This document shows positions 1 to 31,834 of a DNA stretch of 31,834 nucleotides, piece after piece. Position 1 is the stretch's first letter. Each line of letters starts with the position of its first letter. This stretch comes from a virus. Its lineage: Duplodnaviria > Heunggongvirae > Uroviricota > Caudoviricetes > Peduoviridae. A program made the position numbers and the translations under genes. The stretch spans positions 1 through 31,834 of IMG/VR virus record IMGVR_UViG_2974619728_000001; one strand, written 5' to 3'. The notes beneath the pieces were generated by a model, which ran no database searches, was not told the DNA's origin, and saw nothing but the letters and a program-made list of their open reading frames with translations.

Positions 1-19
1 GGCGAGGCGGGGAAAGCAC
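1..19. other. cos: cos left cohesive-end sequence (P2-type 19-nt end)
   Basis: Window begins GGCGAGGCGGGGAAAGCAC, which matches the P2 cohesive end as I remember it; position immediately outside the portal/terminase genes fits a cos-cut genome. Confidence 0.7.
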
Positions 20-160
20 TGCGCGCTGGCGGTGGTGCTGATTTTATTTTTCGGCGTCTCAGCGCGTCGTGATGGCGTTTAGATTGTGTGCCGGGGCGTC
101 GGTGTGTCTGCGGGCTGTTTTGCGTGGAGGTGAGCGTGTGAGGGCGTGATGACGGGGTGT

Positions 161-182
161 AAAAAAGCCGCCCGCAGGCGGC
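161..182 (-). terminator. rho-independent terminator downstream of Q (minus strand)
   Basis: Plus-strand AAAAAA followed by GCCGCC-CGCA-GGCGGC; on the minus strand this is a 6-bp GC stem followed by a U6 tract, directly after the Q stop at 188-190. Confidence 0.6.
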
Positions 183-187
183 GATGT

Positions 188-1222
188 TCAGCCGTTGTCA
201 GTGTCCAGTGAGTAGTTTTTAAAGCGGATGACCTCCTGACCGAGCCAGCCGTTTATCTCGCGGATCCTGTCCTGTAGCGGGATAAGCTCATTGCGGACAA
301 AGACCTTTGCCACTTTCTCAATATCACCCAACGACCCGACGTTCTCCGGCTTGCCGCCCATCAACTGAAAGGGGATGCGGTGCGCGTCCAGCAGGTCAGC
401 GGCGCTGGCTTTTTTGATATTAAAAAAATCGTCCTTCGTTGCCACTTCACTGAGCGGGATAATTTTAATGCCGTCGGCTTTCCCCTGCGGGGCATAGAGA
501 AACAGATTTTTAAAGTTGTTGCGGCCTTTCGACTTCACCATGTTTTCGCGGAGCATTTCGATATCGTTGCGATCCTGCACGGCATCAGTGACGTACATGA
601 TGTATCCGGCATGTGCGCCGTTTTCGTAATACTTGCGGCGGAACAGCGTGGCCGACTCATTCAGCCAGGCAGAGTTAAGGGCGCTGAGATATTCCGGCAG
701 GCCGTACAGCTCCTGATTAATATCCGGCTCCAGCAGGTGAAACACGGAGCCGGGCGCGAAGGCTGTCGGCTCGTTGAAGGACGGCACCCACCAGTAAACA
801 TCCTCCTCCACGCCACGGCGGGTATATTTTGCCGGTGAGGTTTCCAGTCTGATGACCTTACCGGTGGTGCTGTAACGCTTTTCCAGAAATGCATTACCAA
901 ATACCAGAAAATCCAGCACAAAGCGGCTGAAATCCTGCTGGGAAAGCCATGGATGCGGGATAAATGTCGAGGCCAGAATATTACGTTTGACGTAAATCGG
1001 TGAGCTGTGATGCACGGCAGCACGCAGGCTTTTTGCCAGACCGGTAAAGCTGACCGGCGGCTCATACCATCTGCCGTTACTGATGCATTCGACGTAATCC
1101 AGAATGTCACGGCGGTCGAGCACCGGCACCGGCTCACCAAAGGTGAATGCCTCCATTTTCGGGGCGCTGGCGGTCATTTTTTTTGCCGCAGGTTGCGGTG
1201 TTTTCCCTTTTTTCTTGCTCAT
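188..1222 (-). CDS. Q: portal protein (P2 gpQ-like), 344 aa
   Basis: Full-length ORF; translation MSKKKGKTPQPAAK... matches P2 portal in length and sequence as recalled; sits next to the terminase ATPase gene. Confidence 0.92.
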   Translation of the reverse strand: MSKKKGKTPQPAAKKMTASAPKMEAFTFGEPVPVLDRRDILDYVECISNGRWYEPPVSFTGLAKSLRAAVHHSSPIYVKRNILASTFIPHPWLSQQDFSRFVLDFLVFGNAFLEKRYSTTGKVIRLETSPAKYTRRGVEEDVYWWVPSFNEPTAFAPGSVFHLLEPDINQELYGLPEYLSALNSAWLNESATLFRRKYYENGAHAGYIMYVTDAVQDRNDIEMLRENMVKSKGRNNFKNLFLYAPQGKADGIKIIPLSEVATKDDFFNIKKASAADLLDAHRIPFQLMGGKPENVGSLGDIEKVAKVFVRNELIPLQDRIREINGWLGQEVIRFKNYSLDTDNG

Positions 1223-2994
1223 CAGTAAAACTCCAGAATGGTGGATGTCAGCGGGGTGCTGATACCGGCGGTGAGTGGCTCATTTAACAGGGCGTGCATG
1301 GTCGCCCAGGCGAGGTCGGCGTGGCTGGCTTCCTCGCTGCGGCTGGCCTCATAGGTGGCGCTGCGTCCGCTGCTGGTCATGGTCTTGCGGATAGCCATAA
1401 ACGAGCTGGTGATGTCGGTGGCGCTGACGTCATATTCCAGACAGCCACGGCGGATAACGTCTTTGGCCTTGAGCACCATTGCGGTTTTCATTTCCGGCGT
1501 GTAGCGGATATCGCGCGCGGCGGGATAGAACGAGCGCACGAGCTGGAACACGCCGACACCGAGGCCGGTGGCATCAATACCGATGTATTCGACGTTGTAT
1601 TTTTCGGTGAGTTTGCGGATGGATTCCGCCTGGGTGGCAAAGTCCATGCCTTTCCACTGGTGACGCTCAAGTATTCTGAATTTGCCACCGGCCACCACCG
1701 GCGGTGCCAGCACCACGCATCCGGCGCTGTCGCCACGGTGTGACGGGTCGTAACCAATCCATACCGGGCGGGAGCCGAACGGATTGGCGGCAAACGGCGC
1801 ATAGTCTTCCCATTCTTCCAGCGTGTCGACCATGCAGCGTTGCAGCTCCTCGAACGGGAACACCGACGCCTTGTCGTCAACAAATTCACACATGAACAGG
1901 TTTTTAAAATCGTCGGCGCTGTTTTCGCGTTTAAGCTGCTCAATGTCGAACAGCGTGCAGCCACCTTTCAGGGCGTCCTCAATGGTGACAATCTGCCGCC
2001 ACTGGCCGTCCGCACAGAGAAGACCTCCGGCAAGTGCGTTATGACTGACGTCGATTTCCACGCGTTCGGCGGCGCTGGCGCGTCCCCGGTTGAACAGTTC
2101 ACCCGACCAGAACGGGTAGGCGTCGTGCGCCAGCGTGGACGGGGTGGAGAAATAGGTCGAGCGCAGGTGACTCTGTGAGGCCATACCTGATGCCACCTTA
2201 CGCAGTACCTGAAAATTCGGGATCCAGAAAATCTCATCGACGTACAGGTCGCCGTTATGGCTCTGCGCGGTGTTGGAGTTGGTGCCGAGAAAAATCAGTT
2301 TTGCGCCGTTATTGCCCAGGACAATCGGGTCACCGGTCAGGTCAACGTCAACCAGACGGGCAAAGGCGATGATGTATTCGCGGAACACATACGCCTGCGT
2401 TTTACTGGCTGACAGAAAAATCTGGTTATGGCCGGTTTTCAGGGCGCGCAGCAGCGCCTCGCGGGAAAAATAAAACGTCGCGCCAATCTGGCGGGATTTC
2501 AGGATATCGCGGATGCGGTGCTCAAGCCCGGCGCGATACCAGTGCAACTGATATTCGAAAGACTGCTCAAAGAAAATCTGCTCCAGCTTTTCGATGGCCT
2601 CGTCACTGAAAAAATTCTTTTTCGGTTTGCGACGCCCGCCTTTGTTGCGGTTAGCGACGTTCGGATTAAGGTCTGCCTCGTTGCCGGTCTGACTGTAACG
2701 GTTGACCCGTGCCAGTCGTTCAATCTGGCGTCCGAGCAGGTCAATTTCCTTGAAGTCACCGCCGGTTTTCTGCGGTTTGATGATGAGCTGGGTCAGTCGC
2801 GCTTCCAGACTCATTTCGACACGGCTGATGGGGGCAACGCTGTCCCAGCCGTCGCGCTGTTTCCAGCTCTGCACCGTCGGGCGTTTCATCTGCAACATGG
2901 CGGCAATCTGCGGCACGGAAAACCCCTGCCAGTACAGCAGCGCCGCCTGACGACGCGGGTCGTGTAAAAGAGTGGTGTCTGTGGTGATGGTCAT
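1222..2994 (-). CDS. P: terminase large (ATPase) subunit, P2 gpP-like, about 590 aa
   Basis: 600-aa ORF; start placed at internal Met (MTITTDTTLL) to match P2 gpP length; its stop overlaps the Q start by 1 nt. Confidence 0.88.
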   Translation of the reverse strand: MTITTDTTLLHDPRRQAALLYWQGFSVPQIAAMLQMKRPTVQSWKQRDGWDSVAPISRVEMSLEARLTQLIIKPQKTGGDFKEIDLLGRQIERLARVNRYSQTGNEADLNPNVANRNKGGRRKPKKNFFSDEAIEKLEQIFFEQSFEYQLHWYRAGLEHRIRDILKSRQIGATFYFSREALLRALKTGHNQIFLSASKTQAYVFREYIIAFARLVDVDLTGDPIVLGNNGAKLIFLGTNSNTAQSHNGDLYVDEIFWIPNFQVLRKVASGMASQSHLRSTYFSTPSTLAHDAYPFWSGELFNRGRASAAERVEIDVSHNALAGGLLCADGQWRQIVTIEDALKGGCTLFDIEQLKRENSADDFKNLFMCEFVDDKASVFPFEELQRCMVDTLEEWEDYAPFAANPFGSRPVWIGYDPSHRGDSAGCVVLAPPVVAGGKFRILERHQWKGMDFATQAESIRKLTEKYNVEYIGIDATGLGVGVFQLVRSFYPAARDIRYTPEMKTAMVLKAKDVIRRGCLEYDVSATDITSSFMAIRKTMTSSGRSATYEASRSEEASHADLAWATMHALLNEPLTAGISTPLTSTILEFY

Positions 2995-4022: not shown

Positions 4023-4080
4023 CCGGTGTCAGTCAGTCCGGGAAAACCTTCACGATTAACCCTTAATTTCAGGAAAAACT

Positions 4081-5157: not shown

Positions 5158-5895
5158 ATGACGAGTCCCGCACAGCGCCACATGATGCGGGTCTCGGCAG
5201 CGATGACCGCGCAGCGGGAAGCCGCCCCGCTGCGACATGCAACTGTCTATGAGCAGATGCTGGTCAAGCTGGCCGCAGACCAGCGCACACTGAAAGCGAT
5301 TTACTCAAAAGAGCTTAAGGCCGCGAAAAAACGCGAACTGCTGCCGTTCTGGTTGCCGTGGGTGAACGGCGTGCTGGAGCAGGGCAAAGGCGCACAGGAT
5401 GACATTCTGATGACAGTCATGCTGTGGCGTCTGGATACCGGCGATATTGCCGGTGCGCTGGAGATTGCCCGTTATGCCCTGAAGTACGGTCTGACCATGC
5501 CGGGGAAACACCGCCGCACTCCGCCGTACATGTTCACCGAGGAGGTGGCGCTCGCGGCCATGCGTGCCCACGCTGCCGGTGAGTCTGTGGATACCCGCCT
5601 GCTGACGGACACCCTCGAACTGACCGCCACGGCTGACATGCCTGATGAAGTGCGCGCAAAGCTGCACAAAATCACCGGTCTGTTTCTGCGTGACGCTGGT
5701 GATGCCGCCGGTGCGCTGGCGCACCTGCAACGTGCGACACAGCTCGACTGTCAGGCAGGCGTCAAAAAAGAGATTGAACGACTGGAGCGGGAGCTGAAAC
5801 CGAAGCCGGAGCCAAAAGCGGTCACCCGCGCCCCGCGTAAGACCCGGAGCGTGACACCGGCAAAACGTGGACGCCCGAAAAAGAAAACCAGTTAA
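5158..5895 (+). CDS. M: terminase small (endonuclease) subunit, P2 gpM-like, 245 aa
   Basis: ORF starts 4 nt after N stop; basic C-terminal tail; matches P2 gpM. Confidence 0.88.
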   Translation: MTSPAQRHMMRVSAAMTAQREAAPLRHATVYEQMLVKLAADQRTLKAIYSKELKAAKKRELLPFWLPWVNGVLEQGKGAQDDILMTVMLWRLDTGDIAGALEIARYALKYGLTMPGKHRRTPPYMFTEEVALAAMRAHAAGESVDTRLLTDTLELTATADMPDEVRAKLHKITGLFLRDAGDAAGALAHLQRATQLDCQAGVKKEIERLERELKPKPEPKAVTRAPRKTRSVTPAKRGRPKKKTS

Positions 5896-8487: not shown

Positions 8488-8917
8488 TGCCGTCACGGTG
8501 CTGAAAACTAACCCCGATATGCTGCGGATATTCGTGGATAACGGGAGTATTGCCTCCACACTGGCGGCGTCGCTGTCATTCGAAAAGCGTTACACGCTCA
8601 ATGTGATTGTGACCGACTTTACCGGTGATTTTGACCTGCTCATCGTGCCGGTGCTGGCGTGGCTGCGGGAAAATCAGCCCGACATCATGACCACCGACGA
8701 AGGCCAGAAAAAGGGCTTCACGTTTTATGCAGACATCAACAATGACAGCAGCTTTGATATCAGTATCAGCCTGATGCTGACCGAGCGCACGCTGGTCAGT
8801 GAGGTTGACGGCGCACTGCATGTGAAGAATATCCCGGAACCTCCGCCGCCGGAGCCGGTCACCCGCCCGGTGGAGCTTTATATCAATGGCGAACTGGTGA
8901 GCAAGTGGGATGAATGA
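8450..8917 (+). CDS. R: tail completion protein, P2 gpR-like, 155 aa
   Basis: Full ORF; position and size match P2 gpR. Confidence 0.88.
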   Translation: MLKPDSLRRALTDAVTVLKTNPDMLRIFVDNGSIASTLAASLSFEKRYTLNVIVTDFTGDFDLLIVPVLAWLRENQPDIMTTDEGQKKGFTFYADINNDSSFDISISLMLTERTLVSEVDGALHVKNIPEPPPPEPVTRPVELYINGELVSKWDE

Positions 8918-9368
8918 GTTTAAGCGTTTTGAAGACCGGCTGACCGGACTGATTGAGTCGCTGTCACCGTCAGGGCGTCGGCGACTGGCGGTAGATATTG
9001 CGAAGAAACTGCGCCAGCGCCAGCAGCAGCGAATTAAATTACAAAAAGGCCCGGATGGTACGCCGTATGTACCGAGAAAAAACCAGCCAGTGCGAAATAA
9101 GAAAGGCCGGATAAAGCGGGAAATGTTTGTGAAATTACGCACTAACCGGTTTATGAAAGCAACAGGTAGCGAGAGTGCGGCGGTGGTGGAGTTTGCCAGC
9201 GGGGTGCAACGAATTGCGCGAGTACATCAATTAGGGCTTAAGGATAAGCCGGGGCGTAATAGTGCTGTGGTGGAATATCCTGTTCGTGAGTTATTTGGTT
9301 TTGACAAGGAATCTATACAATTGATAGAAAGGGAGTTATTAGTGATTCTATCGAAAGATGTTATATGA
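8910..9368 (+). CDS. S: tail completion protein, P2 gpS-like, 152 aa
   Basis: MNEFKRFEDRLTGLIESLSPSGRRRLA...; start overlaps R stop. Confidence 0.88.
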   Translation: MNEFKRFEDRLTGLIESLSPSGRRRLAVDIAKKLRQRQQQRIKLQKGPDGTPYVPRKNQPVRNKKGRIKREMFVKLRTNRFMKATGSESAAVVEFASGVQRIARVHQLGLKDKPGRNSAVVEYPVRELFGFDKESIQLIERELLVILSKDVI

Positions 9369-10120
9369 GACGGGTGTTTATGGATGAAAAGTTTTCTATT
9401 TTGAGAAAAAGAGTAAAGCACTCTCAAAAGAAAGTTATGGATTGTATTATTGCTGACCATAATGCTGATATATGTGTGTTATGCGGGAGTTCTGACGATA
9501 TTACTCGTGAGCACATTATTCCTCAGTGGGCCTTTGAGTCAAATGCTGAAAAATCTTTAATTAATAAAAAGAATAATCAGTCAACTCATTACATTAAAGC
9601 CACTGTACCAGCATGCAGAGTGTGCAATTCTGATTTGCTGGGAGTGTTTGAGTATAACCTGAAGAAATTTCTTACGGAAAAGAGGGGAGAGGAGTTAACA
9701 GATTATGAGTATGATTGCATCATATGGTGGTTGCAATACATGGGTTTTAAGTTGCAATTAATGGATTTGCGGAACCGCTTTCTCAGGTATAAAGGTGGTG
9801 ATTATATCCCGTTCCTTGCAAACTTCCCGGTTGCAATGTTTTGGGGGAATGTCGATACGACGCCGGGGGATGTCTTCAGGATTATACGAAAATCGCGACG
9901 CAATCTGATGTCGAAATGGAAGGATAAAAAACATAATTCTTTGATGGTTTTTGAAACATCAAACAAGAGTTTTCATTTCTTTCATAAGGTTGATGAATTT
10001 ATTTTTATTGAAATGCCTCAGGTTAAGAAGGCGTTTTTCTTCTTTTTTAATAAAGAATTTGACAGCCATGATTTAGCTCATGAGGGGTGTATGAAGATTA
10101 TAGAGAAGTGCTACAACTAA
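9365..10120 (+). CDS. AT-rich accessory ORF encoding HNH-type zinc-finger nuclease-like protein, 251 aa, at the position of P2 orf30
   Basis: Residues 37-88 read CVLC...REHIIP...N...H...CRVCN, a CxxC/H/N/CxxC HNH pattern; sequence markedly AT-rich against GC-richer flanks; ATG overlaps S stop. Confidence 0.65.
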   Translation: MRRVFMDEKFSILRKRVKHSQKKVMDCIIADHNADICVLCGSSDDITREHIIPQWAFESNAEKSLINKKNNQSTHYIKATVPACRVCNSDLLGVFEYNLKKFLTEKRGEELTDYEYDCIIWWLQYMGFKLQLMDLRNRFLRYKGGDYIPFLANFPVAMFWGNVDTTPGDVFRIIRKSRRNLMSKWKDKKHNSLMVFETSNKSFHFFHKVDEFIFIEMPQVKKAFFFFFNKEFDSHDLAHEGCMKIIEKCYN

Positions 10121-10197
10121 TATTTATTATGTTGTGTCACAGCTGACAGAATCCTCCATGATTGCTGCTGGTATCGTCCAGCGGCATCCTTCCCGTT
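10121..10197 (+). promoter_or_regulatory. candidate late promoter region for the V-W-J-I-H-G operon
   Basis: 77-bp gap before V; contains partial dyad TGTCACAGCTGACA. Placement inferred from P2 organisation, motif not verified. Confidence 0.35.
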
Positions 10198-15240: not shown

Positions 15241-15357
15241 TTACCGGACATACTGAGCAGAAGGCTAAAAAGGACGCTTTCAGGACATATAGCAAGGGAG
15301 CAAGGATGAAAGAATTAACCCAGTATATTTAATGTTTCAATCATGATAGTTTCTGAA

Positions 15358-15384
15358 TTAAAGGGGGCTATCCACCCCCTTTAA
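15358..15384. terminator. hairpin TTAAAGGGGG-CTATCCA-CCCCCTTTAA between convergent G and the minus-strand accessory genes (likely bidirectional terminator)
   Basis: 10-bp perfect stem and 7-nt loop, immediately 3' of the minus-strand ORF stop (15385-15387) and followed by T-rich sequence on the plus strand. Confidence 0.6.
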
Positions 15385-15663: not shown

Positions 15664-15680
15664 AAATCATCTCCCAAAGG

Positions 15681-15709: not shown

Positions 15710-15715
15710 CATATA

Positions 15716-17079: not shown

Positions 17080-17215
17080 TACAATTGACCTGCTCCCCAT
17101 AAATTAGCATACCACAATCTCAGGTTCCTCTTCGCTCAAAACAGGCAGTCAGATTTGATAGCGTTTTGGCTATGTAAATTGTCAGTCGGAAAATGAGTGT
17201 GTACAAATCAGGACA

Positions 17216-22478: not shown

Positions 22479-23641
22479 TGCTGGATGCGCTGACATTTGA
22501 TGCAGGCAGTACGCTGACGCCGGATTACATGCTGATGCTCGACAGCAGGGATATTACCGGCAATATCAGCGACCGTCTGATGAGCATGACTCTGACGGAT
22601 AACCGGGGCTTTGAAGCTGACCAGCTTGATATTGAACTGAACGATGCCGACGGGCAGGTCGGGCTGCCGGTTCGTGGCGCTGTCCTGACGGTGTATATCG
22701 GCTGGAAAGGTTTTGCCCTGGTATGCAAAGGGAAATTCACCGTTGATGAGGTTGAACACCGGGGCGCGCCGGATGTGGTCACCATCCGCGCCCGGAGTGC
22801 AGATTTCCGCGGGACGCTCAATTCCCGCCGGGAAGGCTCCTGGCATGACACCACGCTCGGTGCGATTGTTGAGGCGATAGCCTCCCGTAACAGGCTGGAA
22901 GCCAGTGTCGCTCCGTCACTGGCCGGAATTAAAATCCCGCACATCGACCAGTCGCAGGAGTCTGATGCGAAATTCCTGACCCGTCTTGCAGAACGCAACG
23001 GCGGTGAGGTGTCGGTAAAAATGGGAAAACTGTTGTTTCTCAAAGCGGGGCAGGGGGTGACGGCCAGCGGTAAAAAAATCCCGCAGGTCACCATCACCCG
23101 CAGCGACGGCGACCGCCATCATTTTGCGATTGCTGACCGTGGAGCCTATACCGGCGTAACGGCAAAGTGGTTACACACCAAAGACCCGAAGCCGCAAAAG
23201 CAGAAGGTAAAACTGAAACGCAAAAAGAAAGAAAAACACCTGCGCGCACTGGAGCACCCGAAAGCAAAACCGGTCAGGCAGAAGAAAGCGCCAAAAGTAC
23301 CGGAAGCGCGCGAAGGTGAATACATGGCCGGTGAGGCTGACAACGTTTTTGCCCTGACCACGGTATATGCCACGAAAGCACAGGCCATGCGTGCCGCTCA
23401 GGCGAAGTGGGATAAACTGCAACGGGGCGTTGCGGAGTTCTCCATCAGCCTGGCTACCGGTCGTGCTGATATTTACACGGAAACACCGGTTAAAGTATCA
23501 GGCTTTAAGCGCGTCATAGACGAGCAGGACTGGACAATCACTAAGGTGACACATTTTCTGAATAATAGCGGCTTCACGACGTCCTTAGAGCTTGAGGTCA
23601 GGCTTTCTGATGTGGAGTACGAAACAGAAGATGATGAGTGA
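22478..23641 (+). CDS. D: tail protein D (late tail gene), 387 aa
   Basis: Full ORF overlapping U stop; Lys-rich internal segment; matches P2 gpD. Confidence 0.88.
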   Translation: MLDALTFDAGSTLTPDYMLMLDSRDITGNISDRLMSMTLTDNRGFEADQLDIELNDADGQVGLPVRGAVLTVYIGWKGFALVCKGKFTVDEVEHRGAPDVVTIRARSADFRGTLNSRREGSWHDTTLGAIVEAIASRNRLEASVAPSLAGIKIPHIDQSQESDAKFLTRLAERNGGEVSVKMGKLLFLKAGQGVTASGKKIPQVTITRSDGDRHHFAIADRGAYTGVTAKWLHTKDPKPQKQKVKLKRKKKEKHLRALEHPKAKPVRQKKAPKVPEAREGEYMAGEADNVFALTTVYATKAQAMRAAQAKWDKLQRGVAEFSISLATGRADIYTETPVKVSGFKRVIDEQDWTITKVTHFLNNSGFTTSLELEVRLSDVEYETEDDE

Positions 23642-23722
23642 TGTAATTTATTTATCTGTTTGTTTTATAAGGATAAATTAACTAAAATGGCACTATCAAC
23701 AAAACCGGAAGAGGTGCTCGCG

Positions 23723-23941
23723 ATGTTTCATTGTCCTTTATGCCAGCATGCCGCACATGCGCGTACAAGCCGCTATATCACTGACACGACAAAAGAGCGT
23801 TATCACCAGTGTCAGAACGTGAATTGCAGCGCCACGTTCATCACCTATGAGTCGGTACAGAGATACATCGTGAAGCCGGGAGAAGTCCACGCCGTAAGGC
23901 CGCACCCGTTGCCGTCAGGGCAGCAAATTATGTGGATGTGA
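23723..23941 (+). CDS. ogr: late gene transcription activator Ogr (zinc-finger), 72 aa
   Basis: MFHCPLCQHAAHARTSRYITDTT...CQNVNCSATF has the CxxC...CxxxxC Ogr zinc-finger pattern; start placed at internal Met to match 72 aa. Confidence 0.88.
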   Translation: MFHCPLCQHAAHARTSRYITDTTKERYHQCQNVNCSATFITYESVQRYIVKPGEVHAVRPHPLPSGQQIMWM

Positions 23942-23952
23942 TCACAAAAATA

Positions 23953-23980
23953 GCCCCTCAGTTGAGGGGCTTTATTTATG
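23953..23980 (+). terminator. rho-independent terminator after ogr
   Basis: GCCCCTC-AGTT-GAGGGGC stem-loop followed by TTTATTTAT. Confidence 0.7.
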
Positions 23981-23984
23981 GTCG

Positions 23985-24200
23985 ATGTGGACGCTATGTG
24001 GACAGCGGTTGACATAAATCCATTTATATCATCAGGTTAGGTGCTTTTTTTTGACACCATCCCTGTCTTCCCCCACATGATGTGGGGGTTTTTTTTATCA
24101 ATTACTTACATGCAATCAAAAGTAAAAACAGGTACTTATCGAAAGCTGTAAGGGTTTGGAGCGGTTTCAAAATTTCTTGAGTGTGGACACTATGTGGACA
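23985..24200. other. attP: attP-like region: two pairs of direct TGTGGAC(A) repeats flanking a ~180-bp segment that includes a strong hairpin/T-tract
   Basis: ATGTGGAC at 23985-23992 and 23996-24003; TGTGGACA at 24183-24190 and 24193-24200; sits between ogr and int as in P2. Confidence 0.6.
24070..24096 (+). terminator. hairpin CCCCCACAT-G-ATGTGGGGG followed by T8 inside the attP-like region
   Basis: Seen directly; may be the copied 3' end/terminator of the host target gene. Confidence 0.55.
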
Positions 24201-24215
24201 CTCAGAGGGGGAAAT

Positions 24216-25196
24216 TTATAACGTCACTCCGCCTTTTAGTGGATTCAGAGCGACGGCATTTTGCAGATAGTCAGGCGCAAGGTGCGCATAGGCCATCGTC
24301 TGCTGAATACTCGCATGTCCCAGAATCTGTTGCAGTGCGATTATATTGCCCCCATTCATCATGAAATGGCTTGCGAATGTATGCCGCAGGATGTGGGTTG
24401 CCTGATTGGGTGGTATATCAGGCTTCACTCTGCGTAGAATCCCGCAAAACTTCTCATAATCAACTTTGAACAATTTGGCGCTAGCCTCCTCTTTAACTTT
24501 TTTCTCCAGTTCCTCAGAAATCGGCACGGTTCGCTTTTTACCGTTTTTGGTTTTCAGGAAGGTAACCCTGCAACTTGTAATCTGTGCTGGTTTTAGCGTG
24601 GCAACTTCCGTCCATCTTCCCCCAGTGCTCAGACATAAAAGCGCGACAAGTAAGTCATCACCAGCCAAAACATTTAACAGTTTTTCGATTTCTGCTTTTT
24701 CCAGGAACGTCATTTCAGGGGTGGCCTCCGCCAGTGGCGGCAGTCCGTGAATTGGGTGTTGCCCGGAAAATTCATCCAATTGAATTAATTTTGTGAACAT
24801 GCCGGATAATCGGTACATGTCACGGTTTATCGTTGCGGCACTGATGCCATCACGTAGTCGCATGGAACGATAATCCATCAAAGCCCTTTTGCTCATCCGG
24901 CTCACTGGTATATCACCTATGCCGCTGATGGTTTTGAGCAGATGATTAAACTCTTTTGTTCCATGCTCGTGGTTTTGCCCGTGATATTTCCACCAGATGT
25001 CCAGCAACTCACTCAAAGTCCGGCGGTCTACTCGCTGGCCTCCCCATTCTTTCTGACTGGCATTGGCGATTGTGTATCGCTCAAATGCTAGTGCTTCAGC
25101 TTTTCTTTCGAATTTCCTGCGGATGCGTTTTCCGTCGCGACCGCGAGGTCTAATGTCCACTTCATAGCGACCATCATCGAGCTTCTTAATTGCCAT
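24216..25196 (-). CDS. int: tyrosine integrase, P2 Int-like, about 326 aa
   Basis: MAIKKLDDGRYEVDIRPRGRDGKRIRRKF N-terminus; C-terminal HxxR...Y recombinase pattern (ATHILRHTFASH...MAYAHLAPDY); start placed at internal Met. Confidence 0.88.
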   Translation of the reverse strand: MAIKKLDDGRYEVDIRPRGRDGKRIRRKFERKAEALAFERYTIANASQKEWGGQRVDRRTLSELLDIWWKYHGQNHEHGTKEFNHLLKTISGIGDIPVSRMSKRALMDYRSMRLRDGISAATINRDMYRLSGMFTKLIQLDEFSGQHPIHGLPPLAEATPEMTFLEKAEIEKLLNVLAGDDLLVALLCLSTGGRWTEVATLKPAQITSCRVTFLKTKNGKKRTVPISEELEKKVKEEASAKLFKVDYEKFCGILRRVKPDIPPNQATHILRHTFASHFMMNGGNIIALQQILGHASIQQTMAYAHLAPDYLQNAVALNPLKGGVTL

Positions 25197-25265
25197 AAGA
25201 AAGCCCTCCGGCGCTGTATTCACCATCTTGGTAGCAAATGGTGAAAATGTAATCTTTATATAGAG

Positions 25266-25559
25266 TTAGCCAATCCTTTTCGCGGAGTGGTTGGACTCTG
25301 TTGACTCTGGCCCAATGTGCGCGAGAGCCGGTGCGATTTGTCCTGCGTCCGGCGCGGTTTTATCTGTCATAAGCCATAGAGCATATTTTTGGAATGTGGG
25401 ATGCATAGTGATTTTTAGCAAAGCTGTGCCACCGGGTTCAAAGTTTCCTCCTTCATATTTTTTAAGTGTGCTTAGCGGTAACTCTATGATTTCACAGAAT
25501 TTTGATTGGCTTAGCCCTTCAGCCTCACGCAAGGCCTTAATCTTTTCGCTTAATTTCAT
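25266..25559 (-). CDS. C: immunity repressor C (P2 C-like), 97 aa
   Basis: Small ORF divergent from cox; shares ...GQIAPALAH... with P2-family C but is clearly diverged elsewhere. Confidence 0.75.
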   Translation of the reverse strand: MKLSEKIKALREAEGLSQSKFCEIIELPLSTLKKYEGGNFEPGGTALLKITMHPTFQKYALWLMTDKTAPDAGQIAPALAHIGPESTESNHSAKRIG

Positions 25560-25680
25560 TTGACATGGTGCCTATATATGGACTAAATTCCCTCAAAACT
25601 GGAATCTATATAGGTTCCATTGATTTGAGAATAAACCAGCGTCTAAACGGTTTTGAGTGGTTTAGAAAGGGCTGGATCCT
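25560..25680. promoter_or_regulatory. C/cox divergent promoter-operator switch region (Pc/Pe)
   Basis: 121-bp gap between divergent C and cox; contains TTGACA at 25560-25565 and repeated ATATA(T)GG motifs. Confidence 0.55.
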
Positions 25681-25968
25681 ATGAGGGTACCATATATGGA
25701 CGCTGAAAATTATGTGATTCAGTATCCGCTTGATGCGGTTCATGTGGATAAATTTGCTGATTTATTAGGGAAGCCAAAGACAGCCGTCAGTGAAATGGTG
25801 AAGGCAAATAAATTACCAATTATTGAATTGCGTGATCCTTGCAAACCGAAGGCTCGTGCCGGTGAAAAATGGGTTTTCATTCCTGAGTTTAATCGCGCTG
25901 TACGTGAGGCGTTTTATAACCGACCGGTTGAACAGCGTGATGCATGGCTTTTGTGGATGGGGTTGTGA
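25681..25968 (+). CDS. cox: Cox-like excisionase/transcriptional regulator, about 90-95 aa (start may be internal Met at 25696)
   Basis: Position, size and ...GEKWVFIPEFN...RDAWLLWMGL resemble P2 Cox. Confidence 0.75.
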   Translation: MRVPYMDAENYVIQYPLDAVHVDKFADLLGKPKTAVSEMVKANKLPIIELRDPCKPKARAGEKWVFIPEFNRAVREAFYNRPVEQRDAWLLWMGL

Positions 25969-25970
25969 TT

Positions 25971-26141
25971 ATGAATGAGCCGCGTTGTATTGCTCAGTTA
26001 CTGCGTAACGAAAGCCCCAGGGCGATTGACTTCACCATCACCCACGGGAAGGGTCGCAAGGGAATCATTATCCGCACCAAAAAACAGAGTCCGTTAAAAA
26101 AGGCTCTGACCTTTCTGAAAAGCCGGAGGGTCTGGAAATGA
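25971..26141 (+). CDS. small early protein, P2 orf78-like, 56 aa
   Basis: MNEPRCIAQLLRNES...; short ORF between cox and B as in P2; function unknown. Confidence 0.55.
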   Translation: MNEPRCIAQLLRNESPRAIDFTITHGKGRKGIIIRTKKQSPLKKALTFLKSRRVWK

Positions 26142-26638
26142 CAGTGATGACGCTCAATCTCGTCGAAAAACAGCCAGCAGCTATGCGCCGGATAATTGGC
26201 AAGCATCTTGCCGTCCCTCGCTGGCAGGATACATGTGATTATTATAATCAGATGATGGAGCGCGAACGGTTAACGGTTTGCTTTCATGCGCAGTTAAAAC
26301 AGCGTCACGCAACGATGCGTTTTGAAGAAATGAACGACGTCGAACGTGAACGGCTGGTTTGTGCAATTGATGAACTGCGTGGGGCATTCTCAAAACGCCG
26401 TCAGGTCGGTGCAAGTGAGTATGCATATATTAGTTTTTTAACAGTCAGTCAGCGTCGTACTTTATTTATGCATGCGGGATTGACAGAAAAAGAATTCAAT
26501 CAGCCGTACTGGCGCATTAATGAAGAATCATGTTACTGGCGTGATGCTTTATTCCGTGCATTACGTGAATTATTCAGTCTGTTTGAGTATGCACCGACAA
26601 TTCTGACGTCGGTAAAACCAGAGCAATATCTGCATTAA
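26138..26638 (+). CDS. B: replication protein B (helicase-loader-like), 166 aa
   Basis: Full ORF; size and position match P2 gpB. Confidence 0.85.
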   Translation: MTVMTLNLVEKQPAAMRRIIGKHLAVPRWQDTCDYYNQMMERERLTVCFHAQLKQRHATMRFEEMNDVERERLVCAIDELRGAFSKRRQVGASEYAYISFLTVSQRRTLFMHAGLTEKEFNQPYWRINEESCYWRDALFRALRELFSLFEYAPTILTSVKPEQYLH

Positions 26639-26701
26639 GTAATTAACCAGAGTTTTTAACGCACTTAATCGTGCGGGGCTTCTTTTTGCCTGGAGAAAGT
26701 C

Positions 26702-26926
26702 ATGCATACAGTTTCTGAAAATCAGTGCGGTAAATACACATTACTGCTGCAACAGGCCAGAACCGAAGCACAGGCCGACGCTGCGACGCGCTTTTCTTCT
26801 CATCTTGACGCCATGATTCGCCACATAACAAAGGCGGAGTTATCCCGCGTGGAGATAGTCGAGCTGCTCAGTCAGGAGTCGGAAAAATTTCACAATATCG
26901 GATTGTCTCGCGGGGAGGTGCTTTGA
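26702..26926 (+). CDS. small early protein (P2 orf80 position), 74 aa
   Basis: ORF in early operon; function unknown. Confidence 0.6.
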
Positions 26927-27225
26927 TGTCCTGTTCTCATTCAGTTGTATTACTGAATAACGCCTTAAAAATCGCCGTTATGGAAAATGGTGATTTGTCT
27001 CTTATTCAACTTTGTCTTGATAAAGAAAAATGCGACATAACTGAATCTGTTATCGCGATTTATCAGAATGAATTAAACCTCCTGTCTGATGTGGTCAATT
27101 TACTTGTTAAACGCGCTGTATTCCACAAGCAAATTTCCTCCGTGGATGAACTGACAAAATTAACGACAGAACTTGCCAGTTATTGCGCTGATGTATCCAG
27201 GAAACTTAACGATAAAAGGAGCTGA
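26923..27225 (+). CDS. small early protein (P2 orf81 position), 100 aa
   Basis: ORF whose ATG overlaps the preceding stop; function unknown. Confidence 0.6.
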
Positions 27226-27227
27226 TA

Positions 27228-27452
27228 ATGCCGGACAACGTAGATTTTATTCAGGAACAACAGGCTGAATTACTGGAGCGCCAGATTAACGCGGCAAGGG
27301 TAAAACATTGCGGTGCTTCTGCGCTGGTTTGCGAAGAGTGTGACGCGCCAATACCTGCTGCCCGTCGTGCGGCTTATCCGTCAGCCACGCGTTGTGTTTC
27401 CTGTCAGTCAGTCTTTGAAGCAAAAAACAAACATTACCGGAGAACGGCATGA
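27228..27452 (+). CDS. TraR/DksA-family C4 zinc-finger protein (P2 orf82 position), 74 aa
   Basis: CEECDAPIP...CVSCQ four-cysteine motif typical of the TraR/DksA zinc finger. Confidence 0.7.
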   Translation: MPDNVDFIQEQQAELLERQINAARVKHCGASALVCEECDAPIPAARRAAYPSATRCVSCQSVFEAKNKHYRRTA

Positions 27453-27724
27453 GTATTCGTATTGAAATTGGCGAACGTTATGTCGTTACCAGTGACAGCT
27501 TTCAGTTTATTCTCCACGAGAAAAAGAGAGCGGAAAGCGGTAAAAACGCCGGTCAGGAATGGCTGGCGGTGGTTGGTTATTACCCGAAATTAAGCCAGCT
27601 AGTTTCCGGCCTGATGCATCACGATATTCTGACCGGAAGCGCAAAGTCTTTTGCTGATTTAAACGCGCAGGTTGAGCAACTCAGCAAGCGTTGTTCAGAG
27701 GCTTTTGGCTCATATGGCCGTTAA
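27449..27724 (+). CDS. small early protein (P2 orf83 position), 91 aa
   Basis: ORF overlapping neighbours; function unknown. Confidence 0.6.
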   Translation: MSIRIEIGERYVVTSDSFQFILHEKKRAESGKNAGQEWLAVVGYYPKLSQLVSGLMHHDILTGSAKSFADLNAQVEQLSKRCSEAFGSYGR

Positions 27725-29996
27725 AGCCTCCGGGCGTTTTGTCCCTCCGTCAGCATTTGCTGCAGGCACCGGTAAGGCGTTTACCGGTGCTTATGCATGG
27801 AACGCGCCACGCGAGGCTGTCGGGCGCGAAAGACCCCTTACACGTGACGAGATGCGTCAGGTGCAAGGTGTTTTATCCACGATTAACCGCCTGCCTTACT
27901 TTTTGCGCTCGCTGTTTACTTCACGTTATGACTACATCCGGCGCAATAAAAGCCCGGTGCACGGGTTTTATTTCCTCACATCCACTTTTCAGCGTCGTTT
28001 ATGGCCGCGCATTGAGCGTGTGAATCAGCGCCATGAAATGAACACCGACGCGTCGTTACTGTTTCTGGCAGAGCGTGACCACTATGCGCGCCTGCCGGGA
28101 ATGAATGACAAGGAGCTGAAAAAGTTTGCCGCCTGTATCTCATCGCAGCTTTTCATGATGTATGAGGAACTCAGCGATGCCTGGGTGGATGCACATGGCG
28201 AAAAAGAATCGCTGTTTACGGATGAGGCGCAGGCTCACCTCTATGGTCATGTTGCTGGCGCTGCACGTGCTTTCAATATTTCCCCGCTTTACTGGAAAAA
28301 ATACCGTAAAGGACAGATGACCACGAGGCAGGCATATTCTGCCATTGCCCGCCTGTTTAACGATGAGTGGTGGACCCATCAGCTTAAAGGCCAGCGTATG
28401 CGCTGGCATGAGGCGTTACTGATTGCTGTCGGGGAGGTCAATAAAGACCGTTCTCCTTATGCCAGTAAACATGCCATTCGTGATGTGCGTGCGCGCCGCC
28501 AGGCAAATCTGGAATTTCTTAAATCGTGTGACCTTGAAAACAGGGAAACCGGCGAGCGTATCGACCTTATCAGTAAGGTGATGGGCAGTATTTCTAATCC
28601 TGAAATTCGCCGGATGGAGCTGATGAACACCATTGCCGGTATTGAGCGTTACGCCGCCGCAGAGGGTGATGTGGGGATGTTTATCACGCTGACCGCGCCG
28701 TCAAAGTATCACCCGACACGTCAGGTCGGAAAAGGCGAAAGTAAAACCGTCCAGCTAAATCACGGCTGGAACGATGAGGCATTTAATCCAAAGGATGCGC
28801 AGCGTTATCTCTGCCGTATCTGGAGCCTGATGCGTACGGCATTCAAGGATAATGATTTACAGGTCTACGGTTTGCGTGTCGTCGAGCCACACCACGACGG
28901 AACACCGCACTGGCATATGATGCTTTTTTGTAATCCACGCCAGCGTAACCAGATTATCGAAATCATGCGTCGCTATGCGCTCAAAGAGGATGGCGACGAA
29001 AGAGGAGCCGCGCGAAACCGTTTTCAGGCAAAACACCTTAACCGGGGTGGTGCTGCGGGGTATATCGCTAAATACATCTCAAAAAATATCGACGGCTATG
29101 CACTGGATGGTCAGCTCGATAACGATACCGGCAGGCCGCTTAAAGATACTGCCGCGGCTGTTACCGCATGGGCGTCAACGTGGCGCATCCCGCAATTTAA
29201 AACGGTTGGCCTGCCGACAATGGGGGCTTACCGTGAACTACGCAAATTGCCTCGCGGCGTCAGCATAGCTGATGAGTTTGACGAACGCGTCGAGGCTGCA
29301 CGCGCTGCCGCAGACAGTGGCGATTTTGCGCTGTATATCAGCGCGCAGGGTGGGGCAAATGTCCCGCGCGATTGTCAGACTGTCAGGGTCGCCCGTAGCC
29401 CGTCGGATGACGTTAACGAGTACGAGGAAGAGGTCGAGAGAGTGGTCGGCATTTACGCGCCGCATCTCGGCGCGCGTCATATTCATATCACCAGAACCAC
29501 GGACTGGCGCATTGTGCCGAAAGTGCCGGTCGTTGAGCCTTTGACTTTAAAAAGCGGCATCGCCGCGCCTCGGAGTCCTGTCAATAACTGTGGAAAACTC
29601 ACCGGTGGTGATACTTCGTTACCGGCTCCCACACCTTCTGAGCACGCCGCAGCAGTGCTTAATCTGGTTGATGACGGTGTTATCGAATGGAGTGACCCGG
29701 AGGTCGTGAGGGCGCTCAGGGGTGCATTAAAACACGGTCGGAGAACGCCAAGTCGTCAGCAAAGAAACGGAAGCCCGTTAAAACCACATGAAATTGCACC
29801 ATCGGCCAGACTGACCCGGTCGGAAAGAATGCAAATTACCCGTATCCGCGTTGACCTTGCTCAGAACGGTATCAGGCCGCAGCGATGGGAGCTTGAGGCG
29901 CTGGCGCGTGGCGCGACCGTAAATTATGATGGGAAAAAATTCACGTATCCGGTTGTTGATGAGTGGCGGTGGTATATAGTTGATGGTAGGCGGTGA
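27714..29996 (+). CDS. A: replication initiation endonuclease A (rolling-circle initiator), about 760 aa
   Basis: Start placed at MAVKASGRFVPP (ATG 27714); long ORF matching P2 gpA in size and N-terminal sequence. Confidence 0.9.
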   Translation: MAVKASGRFVPPSAFAAGTGKAFTGAYAWNAPREAVGRERPLTRDEMRQVQGVLSTINRLPYFLRSLFTSRYDYIRRNKSPVHGFYFLTSTFQRRLWPRIERVNQRHEMNTDASLLFLAERDHYARLPGMNDKELKKFAACISSQLFMMYEELSDAWVDAHGEKESLFTDEAQAHLYGHVAGAARAFNISPLYWKKYRKGQMTTRQAYSAIARLFNDEWWTHQLKGQRMRWHEALLIAVGEVNKDRSPYASKHAIRDVRARRQANLEFLKSCDLENRETGERIDLISKVMGSISNPEIRRMELMNTIAGIERYAAAEGDVGMFITLTAPSKYHPTRQVGKGESKTVQLNHGWNDEAFNPKDAQRYLCRIWSLMRTAFKDNDLQVYGLRVVEPHHDGTPHWHMMLFCNPRQRNQIIEIMRRYALKEDGDERGAARNRFQAKHLNRGGAAGYIAKYISKNIDGYALDGQLDNDTGRPLKDTAAAVTAWASTWRIPQFKTVGLPTMGAYRELRKLPRGVSIADEFDERVEAARAAADSGDFALYISAQGGANVPRDCQTVRVARSPSDDVNEYEEEVERVVGIYAPHLGARHIHITRTTDWRIVPKVPVVEPLTLKSGIAAPRSPVNNCGKLTGGDTSLPAPTPSEHAAAVLNLVDDGVIEWSDPEVVRALRGALKHGRRTPSRQQRNGSPLKPHEIAPSARLTRSERMQITRIRVDLAQNGIRPQRWELEALARGATVNYDGKKFTYPVVDEWRWYIVDGRR

Positions 29997-30172
29997 AAAG
30001 TTGAAGATGTGAACACTGTTATTGGTAGGTAAGTAGATTTGTATGTATAAAGTAGTTGTTGTAGATATGAACAATCAGGCGTAGAATCGCCAGCCGGCTA
30101 TGATGATTCCAGATGATAATGGTTATCATTAGCTGTTGATTTATGATGTTCTTAACCACTAGAGAGACTAAT

Positions 30173-30370
30173 ATGAGCAAAAAGGTTATCACGATACAAG
30201 TAAGAGGTGGGCACGCAGGTGCTAAGCCTGTTCGTCGTTCAAAACTTGAACAAAGTGTTAATCGTTCCCTGCGTGCTTCGTTTTCTCTGGAAGGTAATCA
30301 CATTACCAACACTTCATGGTCTAAAATGTCGCAGGCTGCACGTTTTCTGACCAGAGTAGCTGTTGCTTAA
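30173..30370 (+). CDS. small DinI-like protein (P2 orf91 position), about 65 aa
   Basis: MSKKVITIQVRGGHAGA...SFSLEGNHI resembles the DinI family (xxVTI...AGA...F..EGH); start chosen at internal Met; 3' end overlaps the convergent Fic gene by 4 nt. Confidence 0.55.
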   Translation: MSKKVITIQVRGGHAGAKPVRRSKLEQSVNRSLRASFSLEGNHITNTSWSKMSQAARFLTRVAVA

Positions 30371-31452
30371 AGCTCTTTGATTGCCCTTGAAATAAGGGCA
30401 ATCAGATTTCTGTTACTGTCGTGTATTGCGCGTCTTACAGCATAATGGTACGCACGTTTATTTTGCACATCTCCATCTAGCTTTTCCATATCAAATTCAT
30501 AACCCATAGTAGTTGCAACAATCTGAAGAAATAATCGTATTGAACGACCATTACCATCTTGAAAGGGGTGGATCCATGCGATTTCTGCATGGAGAGTAGC
30601 TAGTTTATGAACTAACTCTGCTTTAGAATTTATTTTGCTAAGTTCTTTTTTTGTGCAACCTCTAAGACAGGCTTTTAATGATTTTTTGACTTCATTATGT
30701 TCCATTGTTGGTCGCTCTTTATCTCCAACAACAACGGGATGGTTTCTGTATTCACCTGCCCAATCATAAATATGGCCAAAAAGAGCTTTATGGCATTCTA
30801 AGATCGTCTTTTCATTAATTGTTTTATTTTTGTCGGAGACATAATTTATTATGAGCTGCGTACTTTTGATATATGAAATAACCATTTCGGCAAATTCAAC
30901 TTGGTATTGGTATTTTGCAAATACTAGATTTTTTGTTGCCATGTATTCATATCTTTCATTTTTTCCGTCACGTAAAAGAAAAATGTTGTCTTTTTGGTGC
31001 TTTACTTTGATTACATGATTGCGTTGAAATGGAAAGTTTTTGTCGTGAGGCAATATGTGAAAATAAGTTTCTTTTTTTAGCTTGTCTACACCAACAATTG
31101 AACCAAAAAGAAAAAGGGCTGCTGTTGTATTAAATAAAACACATACGGAGTCGCCAAGTTGTATCTCTTCGCGACTTAGATCGCATGTTTTTTTCTTATA
31201 ATTAAATAAATGGGCGATAGATGGTATGCTGTGATGATTGCGCAATGAACCTGAGCCACATATGACTTCTTTTGTCCTGCTATTCCAGTAATAATTAATG
31301 CTTCTCTTATTCTCTTGTGTTCTTTTTATATGAACCAACTTGAAGCTAAGTAGACTTAAAGAGAATTCACCATTCTTTTTGACTATATTAACTTTTTGGT
31401 GTTTCATTTTGTTTTTTGTTAGTGTTATTGAAAAATGTTTTGAAGGTATCAT
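30367..31452 (-). CDS. AT-rich accessory Fic/Doc-domain protein, 361 aa, at the tin/old position
   Basis: Canonical Fic motif HPFQDGNGRSIR (residues 295-306, about 30535-30570) preceded by ...ILECHKALFGHIYDWAGEYR; ~200-aa N-terminal region with no motif I recognise. Confidence 0.75.
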   Translation of the reverse strand: MIPSKHFSITLTKNKMKHQKVNIVKKNGEFSLSLLSFKLVHIKRTQENKRSINYYWNSRTKEVICGSGSLRNHHSIPSIAHLFNYKKKTCDLSREEIQLGDSVCVLFNTTAALFLFGSIVGVDKLKKETYFHILPHDKNFPFQRNHVIKVKHQKDNIFLLRDGKNERYEYMATKNLVFAKYQYQVEFAEMVISYIKSTQLIINYVSDKNKTINEKTILECHKALFGHIYDWAGEYRNHPVVVGDKERPTMEHNEVKKSLKACLRGCTKKELSKINSKAELVHKLATLHAEIAWIHPFQDGNGRSIRLFLQIVATTMGYEFDMEKLDGDVQNKRAYHYAVRRAIHDSNRNLIALISRAIKEL

Positions 31453-31834
31453 GTTTTGAGTAAGAATGCATGGTTATTATAACATGTTGGAGTTTTATCG
31501 CTAAAAAATGGATGTAGTGAGAAGTTTGGTGCTCATGACATTTACACTTAAGATGAACAGGAGGTGCTGTTTCGGTAAGATTATCTTTGTCCCATCACAT
31601 AGCACTGCTCAATTTATCACTCATATCTTCATTTCCTTCCAGTGACAACACAAAGCTTTAAAGTCACCTTCTGTGATGCTGCTTTATGTCATTTCATAAG
31701 ATCAGAGTTATGCATGCATTAGGTGCATAGCTTTGCATGTATCAGAATTATACGTTTTCGGCGTCCGACATCACAGCTAGTTTGGATTCAGAGATGTCAT
31801 GCAACCGCATTAAAACCTCCACATGAAGCGGGCG

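Follow-up and report, generated by a model that had tools for sequence, protein, structure and literature searches.

The DNA analysed here, IMG/VR virus record IMGVR_UViG_2974619728_000001 (the window, 31,834 nucleotides), very probably represents a temperate Peduovirus of the P2 family as a single unit-length genome in its mature virion form, which opens with base 1 of the 19-nt 5' cohesive end and closes immediately ahead of the next cut. We put the probability of this reading at about 0.9. A preliminary description had proposed a cos-to-cos linear P2-like genome rather than an integrated prophage, and the cos ends, the intact attP and the permuted order of a prophage in E. coli PEC131 all agree with that proposal. 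Such a cos-to-cos record is the standard textbook layout and, as such, ordinary.

The first evidence comes from the two ends. Bases 1-19 of the window are GGCGAGGCGGGGAAAGCAC and match the annotated cosL of P2 (NC_001895, the type of Peduovirus) at 19 of 19 positions; the P2 19-nt cohesive end as quoted in PMC3931495 is the same sequence. Within the window this 19-mer is present as a single copy, even if up to three mismatches are allowed, and it did not occur in 100 shuffles. The 3' end, ...GCATTAAAACCTCCACATGAAGCGGGCG, is the base which immediately precedes the cohesive end in P2, and the same final base closes the records of Wphi, P4, 186 and vB_YpM_476A. Thus, alignment of both ends to the P2 cos bore out the suggestion that the window opens with a P2-type cohesive end. 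As its terminus is the base before the cohesive end, the window comprises exactly one genome unit in which the 19-mer is written once, whereas the P2 record carries the 19-mer at both ends. No terminal repeat is present in the window, which is compatible with packaging of the cos type with defined ends. The cos core and its flanks can be aligned with those of P2, Wphi, P4 and 186, and the left end is composed as follows:

1-19, plus strand: 19-nt cohesive end of cos, unchanged across the aligned P2, Wphi and P4 sequences, two positions differing in 186
20-26: TGCGCGC, which completes the conserved cos core of about 55 bp in the alignment, with a G-rich stretch next to it
20-187, no strand assigned: left-end non-coding region (alignment, terminator scan)
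167-182, minus strand: tQ terminator hairpin (terminator scan; the P2 tQ is annotated at 160-181)

P4-like elements part from the window sequence directly 3' of TGCGCGC. Taken together, the left end appears to be a P2-type, GC-rich 19-nt 5' cohesive end within a conserved cos region of about 55 bp. Several records of related phages, such as P2_AC1, 12474II-V, P37 and vB_YpM_50, are arbitrarily permuted or reversed, and a circular assembly that was linearised at random might by coincidence begin at cos. However, the window starts at base 1 of the 19-mer, ends at the base before it and lies in the P2 orientation, for which the chance is about 1 in 63,668 (2 x 31,834), and we give such a coincidence practically no weight.

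The gene content is that of P2. A tblastn search with all P2 proteins, together with Pfam, gave the map order Q, P, O, N, M, L, X, Y, K, lysA/B/C, R, S, V, W, J, I, H, G, FI, FII, E, T, U, D and ogr, followed after ogr by int, C, cox, B, orf80-83 and A, and then by cargo. Both methods concur with the earlier reading of the order Q...ogr-attP-int...A-cargo as the virion map. All essential P2 genes from Q through A are found in P2 order with full-length tblastn matches, and Pfam agrees for the portal, both terminase subunits, Ogr, Int, Cox and GPA. The genes at the borders of the map and those of the terminase are:

188-1222, minus strand: portal gene Q (99.4% identity to P2 gpQ; Pfam Phage_portal)
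1222-2994, minus strand: large terminase gene P with an N-terminal HTH (99.8% to P2 gpP; Pfam Terminase_5, HTH_23, Terminase_6N, Terminase_6C)
5158-5895, plus strand: small terminase gene M (97.2% to P2 gpM; Pfam Phage_term_smal)
23723-23941, plus strand: ogr, late-gene activator and final gene before attP (100% to P2 Ogr; Pfam Ogr_Delta)
27714-29996, plus strand: replication initiator gene A, final backbone gene before the cargo hotspot (98% to P2 gpA; Pfam Phage_GPA, E 2.7e-123)
30367-31452, minus strand: cargo gene with a Fic domain, located in the cos-proximal hotspot (Pfam Fic, E 7e-17; PADLOC models PDC-S04 and SoFic)

P2 and the window have the cohesive end, the gene order, the tQ terminator, ogr and A in common; 80% of the window aligns with P2, and 36 of the 41 P2 proteins compared match it, most structural proteins being 96-100% identical but S only 55%. 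In place of P2 orf30, fun(Z), orf91, tin and old the window harbors other cargo, and tblastn with the P2 proteins returned no match in the window for orf91, tin and old. P2 carries old/tin where the window has Fic, so that the Fic cargo of this phage occupies the established defence hotspot next to cos. The counterpart of the Fic gene in PEC131 is annotated as 'Fic family protein' by RefSeq. Scanning the window for Rfam families and tRNAs gave no hits.

Between ogr and int, attP is uninterrupted and consists of arm repeats, core and arm repeats. The elements of this region and of the adjacent immunity region are:

23985-24004, plus strand: attP P-arm with two direct ATGTGGAC repeats, as read from the sequence
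24053-24099, plus strand: attP core of 47 bp, GACACCATCCCTGTCTTCCCCCACATGATGTGGGGGTTTTTTTTATC, the sole overlap of the two PEC131 prophage arms
24182-24200, plus strand: attP P'-arm with two direct TGTGGACA repeats, as read from the sequence
24216-25196, minus strand: Wphi-type integrase (Pfam Int_N, Phage_integrase)
25266-25559, minus strand: immunity repressor C (protein alignment)
25696-25968, plus strand: cox, excisionase and switch repressor (Pfam Phage_Cox; Wphi Cox has the same residue at 74 of 90 positions)

The window has three exact TGTGGACA sites, all of them within the two att arms, and the arm repeats are consistent with the P2-type arm consensus tgTGGaCa (PMC3448106). The 47-bp core is identical in Wphi (22550-22596) and 476A; it was not found in P2 or 186, and the P2 attP core was not found in the window. 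A reconstructed empty attB, fieF-core-cpxP, occurs uninterrupted in 4593 of the 5426 E. coli genomes examined, and cpxP-fieF is the described insertion site of Wphi (PMC3032704). Int is identical to Wphi Int at 319 of 326 residues and to P2 Int at 168 of 337 aligned positions. On sequence grounds, the integration module is therefore of the Wphi type, with attB in cpxP-fieF, and not of the P2 type. As Int and the core are Wphi-like, a Wphi-like immunity might be expected, but this was ruled out by the alignment of C, which is identical to Wphi C at only 54 of 97 residues and to P2 C at 42 of 99 aligned positions. Judged by these alignments, the C repressor belongs to a class unlike both P2 and Wphi.

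The integrated form of the same phage resides between fieF and cpxP of E. coli PEC131 (NZ_CM168022.1, 4743155-4775041). Its two arms correspond to window 1-24099 and 24053-31834 and overlap only in the 47-bp att core, which is identical at both prophage ends and forms direct-repeat borders. Over the full length the prophage is 99.4% (left arm) and 99.97% (right arm) identical to the window, with 135 substitutions and three gaps, and its cargo is the same at all loci. Unlike the window, it is an exact circular permutation split at the 47-bp core, with int on the cpxP side and ogr on the fieF side, and window base 31834 adjoins base 1 within it. This is the arrangement that had been anticipated for an integrated copy, namely a genome split at attP with int and ogr at opposite ends. 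Could the window itself represent a prophage in its integrated state, or a chromosomal segment with host flanks? The entire window maps within the borders of the PEC131 prophage, and since no part lies outside them, it contains no host flank; the core is single and internal, attP is uninterrupted, and int and ogr are neighbours. We found nothing in favour of this explanation and regard it as having next to no probability.

According to established P2 biology, from which the protein actions are taken, the terminase (gpM and gpP) would recognise cos and introduce nicks staggered by 19 nt. The site would comprise distal TGCAT boxes (31711-31738), the proximal arm (31806-31834), the 19-mer (1-19) and TGCGCGC (20-26). 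P2 terminase has been reported to act on circular monomers, not on concatemers. After injection the cohesive ends would anneal, their ligation would link base 31834 with base 1, and Int together with host factors would recombine the 47-bp attP core (24053-24099, flanked by the TGTGGACA arm repeats) with the identical E. coli attB at cpxP/fieF. The expected product is a prophage in the permuted order int...A-Fic-cos-Q...ogr.

As the window has the non-integrated arrangement and contains no host DNA, the source of the record should be virion DNA or else a circular assembly that was rotated to begin at cos, as is the convention for P2. It might also be argued that it was excised in silico, i.e. 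that the two ends of a prophage were fused at attL/attR and the sequence was then opened at cos, while free phage DNA was never sequenced. Joining two prophage arms at the 47-bp core would reproduce the window exactly, four complete E. coli genomes carry prophages at cpxP-fieF with 99.2-99.4% identity in the left arm, and the prophage at cpxP in GCA_005390245.1 has the exact Fic protein. However, an identical copy was not present in any of 5426 complete E. coli genomes (the best reaching 99.4%), and the exact tail-fibre protein H had no match in an index of 153 billion genes. The longest int ORF likewise had no exact record, a search that tests little as the query started 10 residues upstream of the annotated int. 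In addition, the prophage-derived phage records of the collection used here usually stay in prophage order, as KC618326 and STYP1, which begin at int, and rotation to cos base 1 is a habit of authors describing free phages. We consider in-silico excision improbable and retain the unit-length virion genome as our reading. In practice, the window can be used as a complete, correctly oriented phage genome, which is mostly a matter of bookkeeping; for features that span cos both window ends have to be joined first, and no host context is to be expected.

A comparison with named phages places this phage on a P2 structural backbone with Wphi-type integration at E. coli cpxP-fieF and a repressor unlike those of P2 and Wphi. 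Genome similarity was expressed as identity x aligned fraction and amounts to 77 for P2, 81 for Wphi, 82.6 for 476A and 44 for 186, a member of another genus. By ICTV practice a genus is delimited at about 70% or more nucleotide similarity, and the window falls within Peduovirus. If species are delimited at a genome-wide nucleotide identity of about 95% or above, the values of 77 and 81 place it outside both Peduovirus P2 and Peduovirus Wphi. The best phage records are 97% identical over 88% of the first 25 kb, and no phage record identical to the window was found, the closest being at ~97%. In the immunity and integration genes the distance to P2 is larger, with 50% for Int, 42% for C and 38% for Cox in global alignment and 51%, 43% and 43%, respectively, in local tblastn alignment. 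Wphi (NC_005056) has the cos start, the record convention, the 47-bp attP core and the cpxP-fieF site as in the window, and its Int is 98% identical, while C reaches only 56% and Cox 82%. Its cargo is unlike that of the window at all three variable loci, and it has no match for window 9135-10160, 15241-17127 and 29968-31834. In the Yersinia phages L-413C and HQ103, plated on Y. pestis, the block ogr-attP-int-C-cox-B-A (23600-29967) is collinear with the window at 97.6% and 97.8%, respectively, whereas the cos-proximal cargo is unlike and the match ends at window ~29970. L-413C is reported to carry the Wphi core, and as Yersinia has no attB, E. coli has been proposed as its natural host (PMC3448106). 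vB_YpM_476A (OR545058) has the same first and last bases and the same right end as the window, with the Fic cargo, the TGCAT boxes and a proximal CGCAT box. It differs in a tail fibre gene of 2736 nt versus 2010 nt in the window, in a different and longer ogr-int spacer and at the variable loci.

The non-coding stretch at the right end measures 382 bp if counted from the longest Fic ORF (31453-31834) and 427 bp with the RefSeq-annotated Fic start (window 31407). The preliminary description had assigned the last ~380 bp to right-end packaging sequences. This holds for the last ~125 bp, which are conserved in the manner of packaging sequence and to which family-wide conservation in the spacer is confined, but not for the remainder, which is AT-rich and at random-level identity. 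The stretch is divided as follows:

31453-31710, no strand assigned: AT-rich DNA on the upstream side of the Fic gene, without family-wide conservation (conservation profile, GC)
31711-31738, plus strand: distal phased TGCAT boxes at -124, -120, -111 and -101 from the cut (box frequency)
31806-31834, plus strand: proximal right arm of cos, CGCATTAAAACC...AAGCGGGCG, up to the cut (column identity, alignment)

The conservation profile was based on MAFFT, as an ungapped, cos-anchored profile is misleading on the left side due to 1-bp indels. Beyond about -135 the identity to other cos regions drops to the random level, and the GC content of the AT-rich stretch is 0.33-0.35. By composition and profile, 31453-31710 is not packaging sequence but DNA that travels with the Fic cargo gene. 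A simple scan of 31300-31834 found no sigma-70 consensus promoter, and the Fic promoter was not located. The proximal arm shows a column identity of 86-94% across 111 unique IMG/VR cos regions and is kept in P2, Wphi, P4 and 186. Within the 112 unique cos regions, i.e. the window and 111 others, almost all from IMG/VR, the TGCAT frequency at the distal boxes is 0.62-0.88 per 10-bp bin, compared to a background of ~0.02. A scan of genome contigs with a 17-base cos pattern returned mostly chance matches from unrelated GC-rich genomes; genuine sites were separated from these by the nine bases preceding the cut, and the chance set served as negative control. The frequency per bin was 0.76-1.18 in 33 enterobacterial cos sites versus ~0.01 in 82 chance matches. 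The box at -29 reads TGCAT in 97% of the 33 genuine sites and CGCAT in the window. This variant is probably functional, as it recurs in 476A, which is the closest among the phage records that share this right end.

E. coli prophages with other cargo begin to match the window at 31709. The distal TGCAT boxes plausibly mark the right border of the cos-proximal cargo hotspot and represent a candidate recognition element for the terminase. The boxes in the conserved right arm keep fixed distances to the cut and are common to P4-like satellites. The cos of lambda (cosQ-cosN-cosB) follows a similar general scheme, being opened by staggered nicks that produce 5' cohesive ends, with accessory recognition sequences beside the nick site; the lambda overhang is 12 nt versus 19 nt in the P2 type, and the sequences are unrelated. 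It might, with some reservation, be speculated that the boxes at -124, -120, -111 and -101, together with that at -29, belong to the P2/P4 packaging signal as a component not described so far. They would then serve, in the manner of cosB, as a recognition element for the terminase at fixed distance from the nick, common to helpers and P4-like satellites of many enterobacterial genera, and would delimit the cos-proximal defence hotspot on its right side. We consider this broader proposal tentative and rather doubtful. Our literature search found no paper that joins TGCAT with a cos site; a more than 1000-fold higher transduction has been described for longer cos flanks, the reason not being stated (PMC9594776). 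When P2/P4 cosmids are designed or hotspot borders defined, the distal TGCAT boxes, which lie at ~100-125 bp from the cut, would be worth including.

We found the window to start with GGCGAGGCGGGGAAAGCAC, the same 19-mer that is annotated in P2 (NC_001895) as cosL (1-19) and again as cosR (33575-33593), and an identical sequence has been given for the 5'-protruding cohesive end of phages related to P2 (PMC3931495). Alignment of the window ends to P2 thus bears out the preliminary description, which had assigned the first 19 nt to a P2-family cos. The 19-mer occurs once in the window, even with up to three mismatches (≤3), and was not found in 100 dinucleotide shuffles of it. The last bases read ...GCATTAAAACCTCCACATGAAGCGGGCG; the P2 homologue of this right end, ...GCATTAAAACCGCCCCGTGAAGCGGGCG, directly precedes cosR, and the final base is the same in the records of Wphi, P4, 186 and the Yersinia phage vB_YpM_476A (476A). 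Since the window starts with the 19-mer and ends at the base common to P2-like records, it is a single genome unit, no more and no less, opened at cos, and the cohesive sequence appears only at its left end. A single 19-mer is likewise present in the Wphi, P4, 186 and 476A records; the P2 reference record (33,593) carries it at both ends, 33575-33593 being the second copy, so that its length counts 19 bases twice. Match coordinates of 476B are offset by 19 bases relative to those of 476A.

When 41 P2 proteins were compared by tblastn, full-length matches were obtained in P2 order, apart from the non-essential orf30, fun(Z), orf91, tin and old, which had no match in the window and whose places are occupied by low-GC cargo. 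Identity to P2 was 96-100% for most matched proteins. The order is Q, P, O, N, M, L, X, Y, K, lysA, lysB, lysC, R, S, V, W, J, I, H, G, FI, FII, E, T, U, D and ogr, followed by int, C, cox, orf78, B, orf80-83 and A. Together with Pfam support for the portal, the large and small terminase, Ogr, Int, Cox and GPA, this agrees with the virion map Q...ogr-attP-int...A-cargo proposed earlier.

Landmark genes located by tblastn with P2 proteins
1222-194, minus strand, Q
23723-23938, ogr
25196-24174, minus strand, int
27714-29966, A

A near-identical prophage resides between fieF and cpxP in E. coli PEC131. By megablast, window 1-24099 matched one PEC131 stretch at 99.42% and window 24053-31834 the adjoining stretch at 99.97%, the sole overlap being 24053-24099; window bases 31834 and 1 are neighbours on the chromosome (29260|29261 in L003, the PEC131 locus). 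The window is thus permuted relative to the integrated copy, in which ogr adjoins fieF and int adjoins cpxP, exactly the split at attP that had been predicted for a prophage. The 47-bp sequence is identical at both prophage-host junctions (L003 5155-5201 and 36996-37042), and joining the host flanks through one copy yields the fieF-cpxP intergenic sequence. Of 5426 complete E. coli genomes, 4593 have this empty attB as a contiguous stretch, often with 100% identity; about 15% (833/5426) do not.

In the window, the 47-bp core is present in one internal copy flanked by arm repeats.

Elements of attP
23985-24004, arm direct repeats, ATGTGGAC/ATGTGGACA
24053-24099, 47-bp core
24182-24200, arm direct repeats, TGTGGACA/TGTGGACA

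The repeats match the consensus for P2-type Int arms, tgTGGaCa (PMC3448106), and exact TGTGGACA sites occur within the 31.8-kb window only in these repeats. Hence attP is whole, and no part of the window falls beyond the PEC131 prophage borders, in line with the earlier view that it is not itself integrated. The core holds a GC hairpin and a T run (CCCCCACATGATGTGGGGGTTTTTTTT) just downstream (3') of cpxP and is a copy of the apparent cpxP terminator, so that insertion would restore a terminator-like sequence beside cpxP. By established P2 biology, the gpM/gpP terminase would nick the two strands of cos 19 nt apart, the ends would anneal after injection, and Int would recombine the core with attB between cpxP and fieF. 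The window data are compatible with virion DNA and also with a circular assembly that was reopened at cos to follow the P2 convention. That the record is a prophage excised in silico is possible but less likely, as no identical copy exists among the 5426 complete E. coli genomes (best 99.4%) and phage records derived from prophages tend to retain prophage order.

The 47-bp core is the same as Wphi 22550-22596 and is also present in 476A, while the P2 attP core is absent from the window. Int is identical to that of Wphi at 319/326 positions, but to that of P2 at only 168/337; Wphi has been placed at cpxP-fieF in the E. coli W genome (PMC3032704). Cox matches that of Wphi at 74/90 positions. In contrast, the C repressor (25266-25559, minus strand) shares only 54/97 residues with Wphi (56%) and 42/99 with P2 (42%), and the immunity specificity is therefore probably that of neither phage. 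With Int and the att core of Wphi type, the switch and integration module have thus been reassorted. The same combination occurs in L-413C and HQ103, which are collinear with window 23600-29967 at 97.6-97.8%. L-413C carries the Wphi core and Yersinia lacks a matching attB (PMC3448106); by the argument made for that phage, the natural host here would be E. coli. Identity multiplied by aligned fraction (P2 77, Wphi 81, 476A 83, 186 44) places the phage within the genus Peduovirus and outside the species of all four. An identical phage record was not found among those compared, nor was the exact H protein by exact-sequence look-up. Thus, the earlier observation of a cos-to-cos P2-like genome is confirmed and its interpretation supported. 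The window is the complete, correctly oriented genome of a new mosaic Peduovirus member, which is an ordinary finding, and the cos-flank anatomy is a modest side result.

For the latter, an exact match to the 19-mer yielded 111 unique cos regions, nearly all of them in IMG/VR, which were aligned to the window junction (negative positions lie on the right-end side of the cut).

Identity of alignment columns to the window
19-mer, 1.00
-40 to -1, 0.62-0.94
-130 to -91, 0.53-0.67
beyond about -135, random level

Past the cut, identity remained at 0.5-0.9 up to and across the Q gene. When the window, P2, 476A, Wphi, P4 and 186 were aligned together, they revealed a core of ~55 bp, TGCATTAAAACC...AAGCGGGCG, the 19-mer and TGCGCGC, in agreement with the '55-bp cos region' that PMC3931495 and PMC9594776 credit to Ziermann & Calendar. 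A second conserved block in this alignment consists of TGCAT pentamers.

TGCAT boxes
31711, 31715, 31724 and 31734 (-124, -120, -111 and -101 from the cut)
31806-31810 (-29), proximal box, reading CGCAT in both the window and 476A

In the 112 unique regions (window + 111), TGCAT frequency per 10-bp bin from -130 to -101 was 0.62, 0.81 and 0.88, and 0.94 at -30, over a background of ~0.02; positions -95 to -35, between the distal and proximal boxes, show no conservation. A second, independent set, obtained by scanning a single genome of each species, comprised 33 genuine cos sites (Yokenella, Kosakonia, Phytobacter, E. albertii, Mangrovibacter, Citrobacter, Scandinavium, Erwinia, Pantoea, Raoultella and others) whose boxes coincide to the base with those above (0.76, 1.18, 0.88, 0.97), compared to ~0.01 for 82 chance pattern matches in unrelated genomes from the same scan. 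Loci L138-L254 and L004-L123 served for the box comparisons. The boxes also occur in elements without a P2-like left side, presumably P4-like satellites, which share nothing else with the helper. Their fixed distance to the cut, a phasing close to the helical repeat (13 and 10 bp) and their presence in satellites lead us to hypothesize that they may be bound by terminase, which fits the >1000-fold increase in cosmid transduction with longer cos flanks (PMC9594776). As E. coli prophages with other cargo match the window from 31709 onwards, the boxes mark the backbone/cargo border. Of the ~380 bp at the right end expected to hold packaging sequences, only the last ~125 bp are conserved in the family; 31453-31710 is AT-rich (GC 0.33-0.35), unconserved and accompanies the Fic gene.

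Cargo occupies three variable loci. At the orf30 locus, a low-GC insert (8910-10120; 0.39-0.41) between S and V, which Wphi and 476A lack, encodes a 251-aa plus-strand ORF (phrog_10503, no assigned function) with a visible HNH-like motif, CVLCG...HIIPQW...CRVCN (Pfam HNH_5 only at E = 0.01, below cut-off); gpS shares just 55% identity with its P2 counterpart. At the Z/fun hotspot (15250-17130), fun(Z) is replaced by three small genes.

Genes at the Z/fun hotspot
92-aa ORF, phrog_1090
15716-15934, minus strand, DUF3606 protein
230-aa protein, phrog_11802, no Pfam or PADLOC match

At the cos-proximal hotspot, where P2 has old/tin, lies the gene for a Fic-domain protein (30367-31452, minus strand), which is matched by the PADLOC models for SoFic and for the candidate system PDC-S04. 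A convergent 65-aa ORF (30173-30370, plus strand, no assigned function) overlaps the Fic stop by 4 nt, and the exact Fic protein is also encoded on ~2-kb Logan contigs broken near cos.
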